From the IMG/VR virus record IMGVR_UViG_3300020352_000786, positions 1 to 64,000 of that record: a stretch of DNA of 64,000 nt, one strand, 5' to 3'. Shown here piece by piece: positions 11,184 to 19,768 of this stretch. Within the stretch, counting starts at the first letter, position 1. The number at the start of each line of letters is the position of its first letter. The notes beneath the pieces were generated by a model that saw only the letters and a program-made list of their open reading frames with translations, was not told the origin of the DNA and did no database searches. Both the position numbers and the translations under genes were made by a program. The stretch is from a virus. Lineage: Duplodnaviria > Caudoviricetes.

Positions 11184-12227
11184 ATGTCAGATATACAAAA
11201 AATTAATACTGACAAGTCTATAGATAATGGTGGTATTACGGTTAGATATCCATTCGGAGAAGGAGAAGGTCGTGATGCTAAGATATCTAGTCAAAATATC
11301 AAGACTCAAGCAAGTAATTTATTAAATAAGTTTAAACCATTAAGAAGCTTTGAAGCAAAGACATTCTCATCCCTCTATTCTATGTTAACAGACAAAACTT
11401 TGGGAATATATCAATCTGACTTACCGTACCCTAGCACATCTAACTTTACATTAAAATCACAATTAGACTTGGGAATAGGTGTTTTTTCTGTATTTAACGA
11501 GCATTATATTTTTAATTATAACAATTATATATACGTGTGTTGTAATAATAATAATATTAAATATATAGATGCTGATTTTAATATATCTGAAATTGATATT
11601 GGTTACAGGTGGGACCAAATCTTTTTTAAAGACAATGATACTATTTTTACCTTATTAGATAATAAGATTTATCAAATTGATTTAACAAATAATACAAGCT
11701 CTGTTTATGGAACATTAGACAGCGCAATACCATATCCTGTAGACGATATTAAATATGACAACATCAATAACAAATTTATATGTGGGTCAAGCGAAAAAAT
11801 ATTTATTAGCAACAATAGCTTGACCTTGCTCGCTACCTTGAACAATACAGTGCAAACTTTATTCAATAACAAAAACGGCACTTTTATAGCATCTAGACCT
11901 TTAGACGGAAATCATGATGCTCAAGACAATTTTCAAATAGACTTATCAGATAATTCTATCACAACATTAACAGATAACAAAAACTATCATGAATATATAG
12001 ATTTATTTTGTAATAACTACATAAAGTCTACCGACATAACAGATGAATTATATAGCGGTTCTACTTTATTGGGCAGTCTAACTCTGTTTGGAGATGCGTC
12101 TAATGATGTGTTGTCCATAAATCAGGCTACAGACACTATTGTTGTAAGAGAAGCAGACAAAAGAAATGTCTATTCTTTAACAAATGCTCTTAATGGTAAA
12201 CTTTCTAAACTTGTGGAGTTAGATTAA
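11184..12227 (+). CDS. Hypothetical protein, probable beta-rich virion component
   Basis: 347 aa; repeated short hydrophobic strands separated by D/N turns (propeller-like); first gene of the adhesin cluster. Confidence 0.6.
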   Translation: MSDIQKINTDKSIDNGGITVRYPFGEGEGRDAKISSQNIKTQASNLLNKFKPLRSFEAKTFSSLYSMLTDKTLGIYQSDLPYPSTSNFTLKSQLDLGIGVFSVFNEHYIFNYNNYIYVCCNNNNIKYIDADFNISEIDIGYRWDQIFFKDNDTIFTLLDNKIYQIDLTNNTSSVYGTLDSAIPYPVDDIKYDNINNKFICGSSEKIFISNNSLTLLATLNNTVQTLFNNKNGTFIASRPLDGNHDAQDNFQIDLSDNSITTLTDNKNYHEYIDLFCNNYIKSTDITDELYSGSTLLGSLTLFGDASNDVLSINQATDTIVVREADKRNVYSLTNALNGKLSKLVELD

Positions 12228-12820
12228 TGGGTGTACTTGTTGTAGCACAAAGCGGCGTGTCGATCACCCCAACACCAACACCCAACAGGTCTGCAACCCC
12301 TACACCAACACCAAGTGTTACATCTACTCCAATAGTAGTCACTGTCACCCCAACTGCTACTTCTACAGTAACGCCCACTCCTACTATTACCAAAACACCA
12401 ACCCCCACACCAACAACATCTCCTAGACCAATATCTATACTGACCCATCCTGAGTCCCAAACAATAGATATAGAACAAACACAAAGTGTAATGTTGCGTA
12501 CAAGTACAGATAATAATTCTACTCATTATTATTCTTGGCAATACTCTGACAATGGAGGTTCTGACTGGAATTTTATTACAATAAGTGGTTTATCTGTGCC
12601 GTCTAAGAAATCTAATCCAACATCCTACTTATTCTTAAATAATCTCACACCCGCTCAACACAATAATCAATACAGATGTCAAATCACCAATGAAGTATTT
12701 ACTACAGAAACAAACGTGGCAACACTTACCATACTGACAGATATCAATATTACAACACAGCCCACAGGCACTACTATTTCAGGTAGTGGAACAGCAACAT
12801 TTTCTATAGGTGCAGAATAA
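12227..12820 (+). CDS. Pro/Thr-linker plus Ig-like domain protein
   Basis: TPTPTP linker; Ig motifs ILTHPESQT, YSWQYSDNGG, QYRCQITN, VATLTI; ends with the start of a second Ig (ITTQPT..TATFSIGAE). Confidence 0.8.
   Translation: MGVLVVAQSGVSITPTPTPNRSATPTPTPSVTSTPIVVTVTPTATSTVTPTPTITKTPTPTPTTSPRPISILTHPESQTIDIEQTQSVMLRTSTDNNSTHYYSWQYSDNGGSDWNFITISGLSVPSKKSNPTSYLFLNNLTPAQHNNQYRCQITNEVFTTETNVATLTILTDINITTQPTGTTISGSGTATFSIGAE
12266..12424 (+). repeat. Low-complexity Thr/Pro (TP)n linker
   Basis: TPTPTPNRSATPTPTPSVTSTP..TPTPTITKTPTPTPTTSP, encoded by ACN CCN repeats. Confidence 0.85.
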
Positions 12821-15800
12821 TGTCAATTAATTATCAATGGCAAGTATCTAAAGATGGAGGAGATAACTACTCCAATATTAATTATACAGGAACTATTTTA
12901 AACTTAAATAGAATCAAAAGACATCAAGACAATAATCTTTATAGATGTAGAGTCAACAGAGATGGTAGCGCCAAATATAGGTACAGTAATTCCGCTAAAC
13001 TTACAGTCTTTCCAGATATATCTCTTGGCAAATTACCCAGTAACATTTCTATAGACGACGGAAATCTTTCGCTAAGTCCGACAGTTTCTGTAGACAATAG
13101 TGCTACAACTTCTTTTCAATGGCAGTATTCAGATAACGACGGTGATAAGTACTATAACTTACCATCGCAAACAGGATCAGGATTAACTCTTACAGGACTA
13201 TCTTCCGCCAATAAAAATTGGCTATATAAATTAAAAGCAGATAGTTACTATTATTCAGGTATTGTCAACACAGTATTTTCAAACGCTGTCAAGACGAATA
13301 TTGAAACAGATGTTCCAATTATACAAATATGGAGACAACCACAGCATTACTATATAGACACTCAATCTCAAGAAGCGAGAGCAGAATTTGATGTAACTGT
13401 ATCAAGCACAGGATTAGATGCAAATGGTATTCCGACTACTTTTTTCGAGTCAAGCGGAATTAGCTACGCTTGGGAACGAACAATAGATAATATTAATTGG
13501 GAACCTGTTGCTACCCATCCTAGTGGACAAAACAAATTATCTATTTATGATCTAATAAAAGACGAAGAAGCTAGCAGTAAAACAAGTTGGCAGAATTACT
13601 ATCAGACTATTGGAGCTAAATATAGAGTAAACGTATCTAAAGATGGGCATACTGTTATGTCAGAAAGCGCTTCATCATTAGACGGCATTAATCTTCCAGA
13701 AACTACTAATTCTGACTATAGTTCCAAAATATATAGTATGAATCACTTTCATATTAGAACCTGCAAAGGTTTGACCTTGGGTCTTTTTAGTAATTGTCCT
13801 CAAATTCTAGAAAATAAAAATAGAAGAATTAATCTTAAACTTTTAAGCTTAGAATCTAATGGAGACAAATATGACTTAGTTCTAAATATGATCAGAGCCC
13901 CAGAAAATAATGAGACCAAACCTTACAGTATTGCTATAGAAAACGTTTCTTTATTTAAAAACAACATTTTACAACAAAATGCTGTAACAAATTTTAATTC
14001 ATCGGAAAACAAAAAAACACCATTTACTATAAACGAATCCGCCGGAGTGCAATCCTTATCAAATAATATTTCTGCTGCTGGAGCAGGCATAGTTTATGGA
14101 CAAGGCTATTGCATCAATCTGTGCAATCCTTTACACGGCAATAATTTATTGAATGCTAATTATAAAAACTTTATTAGCAATTGTATAGCTAAGTCTAGCA
14201 ATAAACAATATGGTGCTATTAAAGTAGGTTTTACAACTACAGGTAGTTCGTCTGCAGATACTGATTTATTATCTAAACTTCCAACTAAAATAAAAATTCA
14301 AAACGGCAATGACGTCAGTGTAGATCTGAAAATTAGTTATGAAATTATAGGTAGTGCTAGTCCAATATCAAAACTTACATTATCCGATATAGATGTCGTA
14401 ATATTAAATCAAGGATATAATTGGTCTTCTAGACAATTCACCGAAGCAGAGCAGTTAGCTTTAAAATACTATGTAAATGATGGTGGAGGATTAATTACAT
14501 CAGAATGGGTTTTATGGAATGCTTATTACGGGAAATTCAATCATTTAAAAGAAGTATTTGCTGCAGAACCTAATAGATATTACAAGACAGAGAAAGAGGT
14601 TCGATATTATCAATATATTCAAGATAGTATTATCAATAATAACGTTGAAAAAGATTTTAAGTTTGGTCCTGCCAATGTTGCTGGAGGAACAGAAACTACT
14701 CTAGATTCTTTTAAATCTAAAGCACAGATTTTTTATATTAAAGATCCTTTACCTATGGAAATAGGTTTAAGGGAATCAACATTTAATATTTTAGATTTAT
14801 TCTCCTTTACAGCAAAAGAAACCGAAAATACAACATCAGTTTCTTTAGATGGACTTTCAACATTCTTTGAAGGGTCTTTTCATTGGTTAGGAAAAGTAGA
14901 TACAGATATAAAAATTGGAGGTGCTTTATATTGGATTTATAAATCTTTAATAGAGCATTATAGGAAAGCAGAACCTGGTACTACTAAGCCTAATTCAGTT
15001 TGGTCTTTAGGAAGACTGTTAGTTGGAGGCACAACAGATGGTATCAATCCTATATTGAAAGAGTATGATTACGACATATCCGATTTCTTATTTAGTGAAA
15101 GTCAGCTTCCTTCAGCTCAAATTTCTCCAGAACAAGAACTTACTCCTAATGATAATTTTTGGAAAGATTTATCCAAACTTTTAGGAGGCCTCAGACCCGT
15201 TAATAGCTATTATAGAGATCACAGAGAAATTGTTAAAGATAGTATTGCTATAACAAAGCCATTAATAGGAGGAACTACAGCGGTTAAACCTGTATCGGGA
15301 GAATTATCAATGCCTATTTCTGTTGTTAGTTCATCAGATTTGCCTATATCTTTTACTTTGCAAAAAGCTAGCGGAGAATCTTTTGAAGATGCTTTTTCTG
15401 GTACTTTTAATGGTCATTCTATCTATATATCAGGTATTGAATCTTCTGATATTGATGATTTGCTTGATAGAAGAGTTGTATTTAAAACACCATTAAACGA
15501 TGAGGGTGTATCAACTCAATTATTTAGGTTCCAATCTCAGGGGCACGCAGGAATATTACGTCGTCCTCCGTTAAACAACCAAGCATACGTTCAAAAATTA
15601 AATCATAATGGGTCAGGACTGTTTAAAAAAACAATCACTCATACCGGAGTAAATGGTATCACATCAGAAGGACCTTCTATTTCATTAGGGTCTTCTGGTA
15701 ATTTAATTAGTTGGCAATATTCTTATGATGATAAAAATTATTATAATATTCAAAGCGGAGGATCAATATCTGGTACAGATTGCATCTTAACTCTTAATAG

Positions 15801-16194
15801 TGGAGAATATAATAAATTTATTAGATATAAAGCCTACCCTCTTCGTAATAATATAACTTCGGACAATGTAACACCAACCATTAATTCTATTGCATATAGT
15901 TCTTCCAATCTTTATGATCCACAAAATGATATATTTTTAGATAGACAATACAATAATTATTATACAAGTGGAGGTGTATACTATTGCGATCTATATGTGT
16001 CTGTAGAAAATACTAATGATACTTTTACTTTAGAAGATATTACTTGGGAACAGTATAGTTCTACTACAAATACATATAGCAGTGTCCCTAACACTTCAGG
16101 TCATAATGTATTAGTGGCCAGTGGAGTAAAAGTTGCTTTATTGGATAATTATAAGTTTAGAGCTAAAATAAACAACAGGATTTTTTACACATGA
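12820..16194 (+). CDS. Large multi-Ig-like-domain virion/adhesin protein
   Basis: Repeated Ig motifs YQWQVSKDGG..YRCRV, FQWQYSDNDG..YKLKA, SYAWERT..YRVNV, SWQYSYD; central DVVILNQG..ALKYYVNDGGGLIT segment. Confidence 0.75.
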   Translation: MSINYQWQVSKDGGDNYSNINYTGTILNLNRIKRHQDNNLYRCRVNRDGSAKYRYSNSAKLTVFPDISLGKLPSNISIDDGNLSLSPTVSVDNSATTSFQWQYSDNDGDKYYNLPSQTGSGLTLTGLSSANKNWLYKLKADSYYYSGIVNTVFSNAVKTNIETDVPIIQIWRQPQHYYIDTQSQEARAEFDVTVSSTGLDANGIPTTFFESSGISYAWERTIDNINWEPVATHPSGQNKLSIYDLIKDEEASSKTSWQNYYQTIGAKYRVNVSKDGHTVMSESASSLDGINLPETTNSDYSSKIYSMNHFHIRTCKGLTLGLFSNCPQILENKNRRINLKLLSLESNGDKYDLVLNMIRAPENNETKPYSIAIENVSLFKNNILQQNAVTNFNSSENKKTPFTINESAGVQSLSNNISAAGAGIVYGQGYCINLCNPLHGNNLLNANYKNFISNCIAKSSNKQYGAIKVGFTTTGSSSADTDLLSKLPTKIKIQNGNDVSVDLKISYEIIGSASPISKLTLSDIDVVILNQGYNWSSRQFTEAEQLALKYYVNDGGGLITSEWVLWNAYYGKFNHLKEVFAAEPNRYYKTEKEVRYYQYIQDSIINNNVEKDFKFGPANVAGGTETTLDSFKSKAQIFYIKDPLPMEIGLRESTFNILDLFSFTAKETENTTSVSLDGLSTFFEGSFHWLGKVDTDIKIGGALYWIYKSLIEHYRKAEPGTTKPNSVWSLGRLLVGGTTDGINPILKEYDYDISDFLFSESQLPSAQISPEQELTPNDNFWKDLSKLLGGLRPVNSYYRDHREIVKDSIAITKPLIGGTTAVKPVSGELSMPISVVSSSDLPISFTLQKASGESFEDAFSGTFNGHSIYISGIESSDIDDLLDRRVVFKTPLNDEGVSTQLFRFQSQGHAGILRRPPLNNQAYVQKLNHNGSGLFKKTITHTGVNGITSEGPSISLGSSGNLISWQYSYDDKNYYNIQSGGSISGTDCILTLNSGEYNKFIRYKAYPLRNNITSDNVTPTINSIAYSSSNLYDPQNDIFLDRQYNNYYTSGGVYYCDLYVSVENTNDTFTLEDITWEQYSSTTNTYSSVPNTSGHNVLVASGVKVALLDNYKFRAKINNRIFYT

Positions 16195-19100
16195 GTTCTT
16201 ATAATACTTTATACATAGATATAAAACAATCTCCTAGCCTTTTAGCTTCTGTAGAGAACGTTAAGCTTTCATCTGATATATATTATTTAAATGCTGATCG
16301 TCAACAGTTTTTATTAAATACTGCTGATGGAACGGTTAGCTACTCTTGGCTTTATTCTGCTGATGGTGGACAAACATTTAAAACTTTAAATCAAAATAGT
16401 CCTAGTTTGTCACTAGACGTAAACACATTAAATATTCAATACATATATAAATTAAAAGTATCCATAGACAGAAATCCTTCTTCTTTGCTAAGTAATAGCT
16501 CTGATATTAAAAATATTATTTCTAATACTAGCAACAATATTATTTTAACTAATCAAACCGATGATGATTCTGAAGTATTGTATAGCGAAGCAATAACTAT
16601 TAATCATAATCTAGATTTAGAAGATATTATTGTAGATATGGCTTTAAACGATATTATAGAACAACTTGGCAACGAAATTAATTTTAATAATCAAGTAGAC
16701 AACCTAGAGCTAAATGTAGAATATGAAGAATCTATAGAAGATACAGAAACTATAGAATCTGTTACTATCGGAGCAGATAGCCCTACAGGTGGTGCTGGTT
16801 TTCTGACAACTACATGCTATGAGCGACGAGTGAACTATTTTTGCGGTGTCAAGATTGATTACTGTGTTAAATCAGAAGAATTTATTTTCCCCGGCAGTAA
16901 CTTTGTTTGTGATGGAGCAGAAATTTGTGTAGGAAAGTGTGTCGTAGAAGATCAAGCTCTACTTAAAATTAACACGCCCGTTGGAGAATGGTATAATACC
17001 AAAATAGGAAATGGTCAATTTAGATGGTGTGTAGGAGGTGTTCAAACTGTACCCCCTATTGATTCGGTAAGTAGATCAACTGACTACGCTAATTGCGCAG
17101 ACCCTATAGATCACCCTGAGAGAGGTAAGGCACTGAAGTGCTATGATCCTGAAAGTAAAACCGATTGGTACACGTGGTTCTTTGACTTACATTGGAAAGA
17201 TTGCGCCCCAGTGAGACCCAGCAAGAGGGGAGCAAAAGGTGCTGATGGGGGAGGTTGTCCTGGAAGAACCTATAATATAATTAAGAAATGGTGCAATCCA
17301 TCGAGTTGTCCAGGAGAGCACGAGTACCAATATAAATACAATCCATTCCTTAACCCCTCAGCAACTGAAAAACAATTTAGATGTAAGCCAAATAAATACG
17401 TGTACCAAGGAGGCTGCTCCTGTGAAGATAAAAATGGGAACACATCTGTTGAGTACGGAGGAGGTTGTGCTGGTCCGGCTTGTACGTCTGTAGCTGGTCC
17501 GACAAATATACAATATGTTGGAGCGATTACCGTTAACGTTTTCGCAGATCCAGATGGCACGCTACGCGCTGAATTTTCCGGCAGACCTAAATTAGAATCA
17601 AACAAGAAATACACACTACACCTTCGTGATGGTTCAGCAGGTAATCATAATCTAGATAATATATTCAAATTCACAACACCATATCTTGACCCAGATTCAG
17701 ACCTTTGTGATATACACGATTTAAATATAGGAAGCGACCTTTGGGGTCCTTGTATAAATCAAGCATTATGTTATCAAGAAGAAGATATTGACCCTAGCTT
17801 CAAATGTTTTTCTGGTGACGCCATATACAAAGTCAAAACAGCTGGAAACAAAAGCTACAGTTGCGCAGAGCATTGTGAAAACGACGACATTCCTAGGATT
17901 GATGCTCCTATATATTCAATTTATATCCCTACAACTAGACCAAGTTCTTCAGAAGGTCTGATGACACTAAGCAAGGCACAAAAATATGTAAAAGATGCTG
18001 CTGGTCCTAATGATCCGTATTGGATTAGACAAGACGGGATCAGACCTGCTGGAGGAAGATCAAAATGTGAATATTATTGTCAAGCAACTCGTAAGAAAAA
18101 AAGCTATAGCATCGCTACTACAGCAGGGACTACTATAGGAAAGCCAAGTCTCAATCAGCCTTGTAAAGCCTGTGACTGTGAAACAAATGCTGATTGTGGG
18201 GGCTGCGGGGTCTGTTCTAATGGTCGATGCATAGATTATCCGAGTACACACAAACTTGCTGGCCGTCATCCTTGTGCTTCAATCCCAGGATCTGTTTGTT
18301 GTACAAGTGTTACTCGTGATATAGGAGAAAAAACAGGATATAAAAAAACTGTGACATGCGCCGATCCCTACTTTTGTCAAGAGTGTATAGCTGTTGAAAG
18401 CGATAACTCTGGCGATCCTAGTGGGACTACTGCTGGACTTCCTTATAATTCTAATGATCCTACTGTAGCGTGTTGTGCTGGAGTTAAATATGATCCTAGA
18501 TGTAAACAATGTGAAGAAGGTACGATAACCGACACATGCATACCTCCAAAAGTATGTACTAAGTCAGGAACAGATACTTGGGACGACGGCTCTGATCCAT
18601 TTTCTCCAAATCTAATTGAATACGACACGTTTTCATGTATAATACCTCCTTGTCCTCATTGTTCATTTGAAGCTGATGATTATGAGCAGACAGGTAATTG
18701 TATCCCTTATAACGGAAGTGTCAATGCAATATTGTCATGCCAGGAGTGTGAAGTTATATCTAATCCTTTTTATCCTGCTTTGAGTGACGAACCATATATG
18801 CCATTTTTTACCTCTACTTTAGATGAGGGAGAAGAATGTTGTCAAACTGGTGAAACCACAGCGGCTCCGTCAAAAAAATGTTGTAGTGATGGACCTGGAG
18901 ATTACTCCTATAGTTGCGGAGAAGATCAAAAGTGTTGTAATGGAACCTGTTTAAATGAAGGGGAGTGCTGTGGAGAATCTGGGGCAGAACCTGCTCCAGT
19001 ATGTCAGAACTGTGAAGGTGAACCCGCATGTCCTGCAGGAACAACATGCTGCACAGGAACAGATCAAAACCCTCCATATGGCGTAATATTTCTTGGATGC

Positions 19101-19286
19101 GCAGACCCTACACAATGCCAAGAGTGTGGTAGCGGATGGGGTAATAATCGTCAAGGCGTCCGACCAACATACGATACAAGCGACCCATGTTTAGTATGTA
19201 ACGAAGGTAGTGTTGATACCATTACTTCAGACGACCCAGAAGATCCTTGTTATTCAGCCCCGCAATCTATTTTCTATGAACCTTAA
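16191..19286 (+). CDS. Ig-like N-terminus plus very Cys-rich C-terminal region, putative fibre/adhesin
   Basis: SYSWLYSADGG..YKLKV Ig motif; about 70 Cys counted by hand after residue ~210, with CC and CxxC clusters. Confidence 0.75.
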   Translation: MSSYNTLYIDIKQSPSLLASVENVKLSSDIYYLNADRQQFLLNTADGTVSYSWLYSADGGQTFKTLNQNSPSLSLDVNTLNIQYIYKLKVSIDRNPSSLLSNSSDIKNIISNTSNNIILTNQTDDDSEVLYSEAITINHNLDLEDIIVDMALNDIIEQLGNEINFNNQVDNLELNVEYEESIEDTETIESVTIGADSPTGGAGFLTTTCYERRVNYFCGVKIDYCVKSEEFIFPGSNFVCDGAEICVGKCVVEDQALLKINTPVGEWYNTKIGNGQFRWCVGGVQTVPPIDSVSRSTDYANCADPIDHPERGKALKCYDPESKTDWYTWFFDLHWKDCAPVRPSKRGAKGADGGGCPGRTYNIIKKWCNPSSCPGEHEYQYKYNPFLNPSATEKQFRCKPNKYVYQGGCSCEDKNGNTSVEYGGGCAGPACTSVAGPTNIQYVGAITVNVFADPDGTLRAEFSGRPKLESNKKYTLHLRDGSAGNHNLDNIFKFTTPYLDPDSDLCDIHDLNIGSDLWGPCINQALCYQEEDIDPSFKCFSGDAIYKVKTAGNKSYSCAEHCENDDIPRIDAPIYSIYIPTTRPSSSEGLMTLSKAQKYVKDAAGPNDPYWIRQDGIRPAGGRSKCEYYCQATRKKKSYSIATTAGTTIGKPSLNQPCKACDCETNADCGGCGVCSNGRCIDYPSTHKLAGRHPCASIPGSVCCTSVTRDIGEKTGYKKTVTCADPYFCQECIAVESDNSGDPSGTTAGLPYNSNDPTVACCAGVKYDPRCKQCEEGTITDTCIPPKVCTKSGTDTWDDGSDPFSPNLIEYDTFSCIIPPCPHCSFEADDYEQTGNCIPYNGSVNAILSCQECEVISNPFYPALSDEPYMPFFTSTLDEGEECCQTGETTAAPSKKCCSDGPGDYSYSCGEDQKCCNGTCLNEGECCGESGAEPAPVCQNCEGEPACPAGTTCCTGTDQNPPYGVIFLGCADPTQCQECGSGWGNNRQGVRPTYDTSDPCLVCNEGSVDTITSDDPEDPCYSAPQSIFYEP

Positions 19287-19300
19287 TCGGAGATAACTAA

Positions 19301-19768
19301 ATGAGTAGTATAAGAGTAAAAAATTTACCTGTTTCTACAGGAGTTTTAAACACAGATAATCTAATTGTTAGCTCTGATGATTTAACATATAAGCTTCCTG
19401 TTTCTGATCTAAAAAAACAGTTGGTAAAACAGACGGCTAATTCACGAACAATCGCTACTGAGTTAAATTACGACACTACAGCTGATGACCTTAACAATAT
19501 CATTAATGTCAACAAAAGTGTGCCGTCTACAGTAACTATAACATCTGCCGCATCAACTAGCGCAAATATAGGTGACCATATAGATGTATTTAATACTAGT
19601 TCTACTTCAGATGTAAGAATTTTATCACCTTCTGGGGTATATATAAGAAGCATGAATAATCATGTAGATTTAACGAGACAATATAGCGTAGGTAAAATTA
19701 CTAAATTTTCCAGTAATGAATGGATGCTTACTGGAGATTTTTTCACTTCTCCTAGTGGTACATTCTAA
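19301..19768 (+). CDS. Putative tail-fibre-associated protein
   Basis: N-terminal IRVKNLPVSTGV..DNLIV and C-terminal LTRQYSVGKITKFSSNEWMLTGDF, motifs I associate with phage tail proteins; GGAG RBS. Confidence 0.55.
   Translation: MSSIRVKNLPVSTGVLNTDNLIVSSDDLTYKLPVSDLKKQLVKQTANSRTIATELNYDTTADDLNNIINVNKSVPSTVTITSAASTSANIGDHIDVFNTSSTSDVRILSPSGVYIRSMNNHVDLTRQYSVGKITKFSSNEWMLTGDFFTSPSGTF

Follow-up and report, generated by a model that had tools for sequence, protein, structure and literature searches.

A conserved gene boundary at the last Ig-like domain of an uncultured marine phage protein and its possible completion by the next gene product

The window analysed here is a stretch of 64,000 nucleotides, positions 1 to 64,000 of the 75.6-kb IMG/VR virus record IMGVR_UViG_3300020352_000786, a linear sequence with a completeness estimate of 54% from an uncultured marine phage. 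Four coupled genes follow one another in this window: 11184-12227, A (12227-12820), B (12820-16194), and C (16191-19286). Proteins A and B carry immunoglobulin (Ig)-like units, and the boundary between B and C, here called junction 2, lies where the last Ig-like domain of B is running into its final strand. The locus therefore raises the question of whether this domain is complete as encoded, is completed by the N-terminus of C as a separate chain, or is extended by recoding into one giant protein. A sequence-only reading of the window had proposed that B stops after strand F and that C supplies the missing strand G, either in a donor-strand-linked modular fibre or, through a slip of the ribosome, in a recoded giant adhesin with an exchangeable tip.

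The boundary between B and C

The basic description of junction 2 in that reading is accurate. B (1124 aa; 12820..16194, + strand) terminates ..DNYKFRAKINNRIFYT followed by TGA, and C (1031 aa; 16191..19286, + strand) opens with MSSYNTLYIDI at an ATGA stop/start overlap (16191..16194, + strand), in the frame one base back. The junction DNA was read in six loci (the window, L002, L004, L006, L007, and L009) representing three lineages, and the overlap is present in all six. Of the related loci, two come from a collection of viral contigs and six from metagenome contigs, with none from genome contigs, and they cover the same three lineages.

The end of B is nearly invariant. Ten B homologues, with identities of 34-96%, all end with RI(F/I)Y plus one or two residues. 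The full-length homologues all start with M-x-I-(N/H)-YQWQ, corresponding to Ig strand C, which they reach within their first 4 to 14 residues (P0008 is truncated N-terminally), and P0020 and the more distant P0015 share this architecture. When 1.84 billion protein representatives were searched with the last 185 residues of B (filter-only HMMER), six proteins matched; all belong to the B family and every match reaches the C-terminus. No fused B-C form was found among these representatives. In total, the boundary recurs in nine independent assemblies of the three lineages and in 12 protein clusters down to 34% identity. Judged from these sequences, the B/C boundary is ancient and always split. 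Sequencing error and recent pseudogenisation are thus excluded by the conservation across homologues and assemblies.

In the distant homologue P0015 (a 1125-aa protein from a Logan assembly), YQWQ is preceded by 13 residues and the C-terminus is an eight-residue G strand (SIESVIVY), so the terminal strand is not of one length throughout the wider B family.

On the other side of the boundary, close relatives share residues 1-11 of C unchanged but differ at seven sites in residues 12-30. Homologues of the N-terminus of C were found only in the same three lineages.

Strand G of B and the N-terminus of C

The last Ig-like domain of B comprises residues 1034-1124 (15919..16191, + strand). The AlphaFold2 (AF2) model of B residues 940-1124, built with 11 aligned homologues, predicts a seven-strand, two-sheet sandwich for this domain, with strands A, B, C, C', and E, a short helix, strand F (FRAKI), and a four-residue strand G (RIFY); the predicted local distance difference test (pLDDT) score of the domain is 72-93. 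Comparison of the domain with 48,161 chains by VIA-align returns only Ig and FN3 domains among the top 50, at middling Z scores of 6.0-7.6 over 68-83 aligned residues. The C-to-F core aligns to the Ig unit at the A/B boundary (hhalign, 12-sequence profile, P 1.1e-4), and this is the sole significant alignment of the domain to a sibling unit. Other searches give little. B has no Pfam Ig match (I-set, Ig_3, fn3) at E up to 0.1, Foldseek against the PDB yields only weak tandem-Ig rows with none at E <= 1e-3, and PDB sequence searches with B and C return no match. The hidden Markov model (HMM) of the cluster's Ig units scores the domain at only 3 bits, with or without the C peptide.

Taken together, AF2, VIA-align, and hhalign place strands A to F in B, followed by a G strand of 4-5 residues (RIFYT). 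The sequence-only reading is therefore right that the C-terminus of B is Ig-like and ends just past the F-G turn (five residues past it); the first half of strand G is present. The AF2 model folds confidently without the downstream peptide, which is neither proof nor refutation of a completion by C.

Relative to its siblings, the domain is short by a constant amount. Greedy profile alignments stop at positions 78/90, 92/104, and 89/101 of three sibling units, so that the shortfall is always 12 positions, corresponding to ten positions of strand G and two of the linker. Adding the N-terminus of C to the greedy alignments fills the shortfall nearly without gaps; hmmalign places this flank inconsistently. 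In addition, the G strand of the neighbouring B domain has eight residues and is longer than the terminal RIFY.

C itself starts with an Ig unit (24 bits against the unit HMM) after a short N-terminal overhang. The four N-terminal Ig units of A and B open with the motif I-x-[ILV]-x-x-x-P (ISILTHP, INITTQP, ISLGKLP, and IQIWRQP), which is rare elsewhere, with seven matches in 12,697 residues (5.5e-4 per position). Residues 9-15 of C (16215..16235, + strand) fit this unit-start motif, reading IDIKQSP in the window, IQITQKP in L007, and INVTQQP in L002. Residue 9 falls on position 1 in three of the four unit profiles tried by greedy hhalign, with a confident core at P 3e-7. From these alignments, the first Ig unit of C most likely has its A strand at residues 9-15. 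With these residues taken up in the fold of C itself, the piece that could be donated to B would be 4-7 residues long, not 11. Residues 2-8 (16194..16214, + strand; SSYNTLY in the window, TSYNSLN in L007, and TALL in L002) would then be the sole segment free to serve as a donated second half of strand G.

The proposed likeness of MSSYNTLYIDI to the G strands of the cluster is not confirmed. A G-strand matrix gives it p 0.08-0.4 against 12-mers of the proteome; known G strands score no better, so the matrix is without discriminating power. An h-x-h-x-h pattern is found in 22% of the N-termini of open reading frames (ORFs), and that of C is no better than chance.

Spacing gives a further view of the junction. 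From the Tyr of strand F to the next unit-start motif there are 24-32 residues within one chain, 14-15 in B alone, and 19-21 in B joined to C without its Met. By this measure, joined B and C read almost as a continuous tandem array, with the stop and start inside strand G.

The precedent within the cluster is junction 1, between A and B. A (197 aa; 12227..12820, + strand) consists of a Pro/Thr-rich linker, one whole Ig unit, and only strands A-B of a second unit (ending ..TATFSIGAE), and B starts with strand C (MSINYQWQ). The TAATG stop/start overlap (12818..12822, + strand) thus cuts an Ig unit (12740-13008) between strands B and C. Against the unit HMM, the alignment begins at position 34 for B alone and at position 2 for A and B joined. 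The joined unit scores 47 bits, and the case is much clearer than that of junction 2. The sequence ATA GGT GCA GAA TAATG is identical in three lineages, and the cut is kept in all full-length B homologues. The alignments make junction 1 a clear case of a predicted split Ig domain, and its presence in the cluster raises the prior for a similar arrangement at junction 2.

We therefore consider the following arrangement. B and C would be subunits, made separately but with coupled translation, of a single Ig-rich appendage of the virion, probably a fibre or adhesin. Their boundary would mark the place where a tandem array of Ig units was split long ago. The last Ig-like domain of B would retain its strands A to F and the opening five residues of strand G, and C would begin with an overhang of 4-7 residues, after which strand A of the first Ig unit of C follows. 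The overhang would lie down as the second half of the G strand of B, so that the two domains abut without a linker. The ATGA overlap would yield both chains at the same ribosome and in equal amounts. Junction 1 would join A to B likewise, and more securely, through a two-strand insert. That residues 2-8 of C complete strand G of B in trans is the best reading available, though a tentative one just short of an even chance, and physical strand sharing is its inferred part. As for the donor-strand-linked modular fibre proposed earlier, the conserved boundary, the Ig-like domain with a short G, and junction 1 keep it plausible, with a donated piece of 4-7 residues in place of the 11 envisaged.

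Recoding, a broken gene, or an ordinary boundary

If the two frames were instead joined by a programmed -1 ribosomal frameshift or by transcriptional slippage, the product would be a B-C giant adhesin of ~2150 aa. The proposed slip site, a run of six T residues (T6; ATT TTT TAC, 16181..16186, + strand), is indeed present, and it lies within the eight codons for which the frame of C is open upstream of its ATG. Frameshifting also often adds Ig-like domains to phage structural proteins (PMC9022992). However, the run departs from a programmed site in each signal tested. The zero-frame ATT TTT TAC contains no X XXY YYZ heptamer, and the A-site Tyr tRNA cannot re-pair on TTA, leaving only a single P-site slip. 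The run is not conserved: it is down to T4 (ATA TTT TAT) in the lineage with 57% identity (L002/L009), and RIIY in P0013, P0014, and P0020 cannot encode a T run. A downstream RNA structure is absent, as the 94 nt from the site fold with a minimum free energy of -10 kcal/mol (z 0.45), and 134 of 200 shuffled sequences fold at least as well. The fused protein is missing from the 1.84 billion representatives, and junction 1 likewise has no slip site.

The features that gave the site its appearance have simpler sources. In a genome with 33% GC, Ile-Phe-Tyr is expected to give T6: Ile is encoded by ATT in 44% of cases and Phe by TTT in 83%, and runs of at least six T residues occur 53 times in the window. 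Any ATGA or TAATG overlap imposes the -1 relation of the frames seen at junctions 1 and 2; such overlaps are usual in the window, and ATGA is the commonest overlap type in this phage. An ATGA overlap beside a T run in an AT-rich phage is thus no evidence of recoding. An AGGA (16177..16180, + strand), within the conserved AGG codon of Arg1120, precedes the run. Shine-Dalgarno (SD)-like sites stimulate -1 shifts in dnaX at a spacing of roughly 10 nt, but here AGGA is only 0-2 nt from the T run. It is a possible SD site for C, lying 10 nt before the ATG of C. The Arg codon ahead of the T run is AGG in all three lineages, although only 15% of Arg codons are AGG. The spacing from AGGA to ATG is 10-13 nt across loci, with 13 nt in L002, long for an SD site, and SD-like words at -9 to -16 are common across the window. 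Low-level accidental slippage may occur at T6. Programmed recoding at this site is very unlikely, and the single-tRNA -1 slip of the sequence-only reading is not borne out.

One long gene broken by a recent frameshift mutation or an assembly error would leave a similar picture, and a single-base deletion from an ancestral TAC ACA ATG AGT would yield the ATGA overlap. This candidate was rejected because the same boundary is shared by the nine independent assemblies and 12 clusters; its probability is practically nil, and any fission must be ancient and has been kept. It is well supported that B and C are made as separate, coupled translation products.

The alternative that carries real weight is that junction 2 is an ordinary boundary between two structural genes. 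In that case the last domain of B is a small but complete sandwich whose G is short, the first residues of C are a tail before its own A strand, and any association between the proteins goes through ordinary domain surfaces. The look of a cut strand would then be inherited from the tandem Ig array in which the genes originated. Several results fit this explanation or weigh against strand completion. The AF2 model reaches its high pLDDT without the peptide, and strand F has five residues, so RIFY pairs along all of it. Single-domain templates are covered nearly to their ends by VIA-align, suggesting that a short G may suffice. The long A strand pairs with strand B in the model, and no unpaired A' strand is evident. 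IDIKQSP is a unit-start motif of C itself, and the overhang of 4-7 residues before it has no significant likeness to a G strand. The spacing in joined B and C is 3-5 residues below that of any cis junction, leaving no linker. The AF2 model of C residues 1-130, at pLDDT 40, is unusable. P0015 ends with its eight-residue G, and the stop may be kept in place by a requirement for the SD site, ATG, and stop to stay together.

What an ordinary boundary leaves to be explained is that the last domain of B falls short of each sibling unit by 12 profile positions, that its G is shorter than that of the neighbouring domain, and that its end is invariant to 1-2 residues across homologues down to 34% identity. 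Junction 1, moreover, shows that split domains are in use in the cluster. We regard an ordinary boundary as quite possible, if somewhat under even. The fuller form of strand completion, in which at least three proteins of this phage family (A-B-C) are linked head to tail in a fixed chain, with split Ig domains rebuilt at both boundaries and, at junction 2, an N-terminal half-strand of 4-7 residues delivered co-translationally by ATGA termination-reinitiation, is somewhat less likely than not.

The exchangeable tip of the earlier proposal finds no counterpart in the loci. Across the three lineages, the homology of C extends from end to end, and no swap is seen. After the Ig unit, C continues into a long Cys-rich region (16800-19286 in the window, with equivalents in L003, L007, and L002). 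This middle part of C diverges faster than B, with 45-57% identity compared with ~90% for B in L003, as expected of a receptor-binding tip.

Genomic setting and comparison with known systems

Nearly all genes of the window are on the + strand, and overlaps of 1, 4, 8, 11, or 14 bases are frequent. The genes nearby include a sigma factor, a ClpP-like head protease, ribonucleotide reductase, and sugar enzymes. A search of phage DNA gave no match. Downstream of C, a 155-aa ORF (19301-19768) has a match (E 1e-6) to the C-terminal 95 residues of phrog_8780, a 'minor tail protein' family of PHROG, which supports a tail or fibre context for the cluster.

Two features elsewhere in the cluster deserve mention. 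Residues ~500-620 of B (14300-14700) show weak Pfam matches to LBP_M and the IFT52 GIFT domain; these fall short of the curated thresholds and flank an invariant GGGL.T.EW..WN block. These matches hint that the central domain of B, between its Ig parts, could be glutamine-amidotransferase-like or GldG-like. Upstream, a third overlap of the TAATG type (12224-12300) connects gene 11184-12227 to A. A opens with MGVLVVAQSGVSI, which is strand-like, followed by a Pro/Thr-rich linker of ~55 residues, and this N-terminal peptide might form a further joint to the upstream 347-aa protein.

Our search of the literature found nothing direct on donor-strand joints in phage fibres. The nearest structural precedent is the baseplate tripod of the Lactococcus phage Tuc2009, in which the C-terminal β-hairpin of BppU completes a sheet of BppA domain 2 to give a composite similar to a titin Ig domain (crystal structure, PMC4742702). 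As in the BppU-BppA pair, two separately encoded adhesion-device proteins would share one sandwich domain at junction 2, here as a prediction only. The upstream C-terminus donates a hairpin in Tuc2009, as at junction 1, whereas at junction 2 the downstream N-terminus would donate a half strand of 4-7 residues. BppU-BppA and B-C are not related in sequence.

A second precedent concerns frame changes. Ig-like domains are appended to phage structural proteins by programmed frameshifting, for example in SPP1 gp17.1* (PMC9022992). Junction 2 shares with this system a phage structural gene, an Ig-like domain, and a change of frame at the boundary. In the SPP1 type, however, a whole domain is added after a conserved slip site, whereas the boundary at junction 2 would lie inside a domain and frameshift signals are absent. 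For annotation, genes of the present kind resemble broken or frameshifted ORFs.

For a donor at the N-terminus, the functional counterpart is donor-strand complementation in pili. In chaperone-usher pili (Fim, Pap, and Caf1), each Ig-like subunit lacks its C-terminal G strand, and the N-terminal extension of the next subunit fills in. The extensions are ~10-15 residues long and replace the whole strand with the help of a chaperone and an usher. In B, by comparison, only the second half of strand G would be wanting, and the chain would be a fixed hetero-oligomer rather than a polymer. Assembly would be cytoplasmic, and a chaperone or usher is not expected. If the joint at junction 2 is real, it would provide a second, minimal form of split-Ig connector for phage fibres built from separately encoded parts, with a bearing on how receptor-binding tips are attached and exchanged, and it would be distinct from both the hairpin insert of Tuc2009 and the donor strands of pili.

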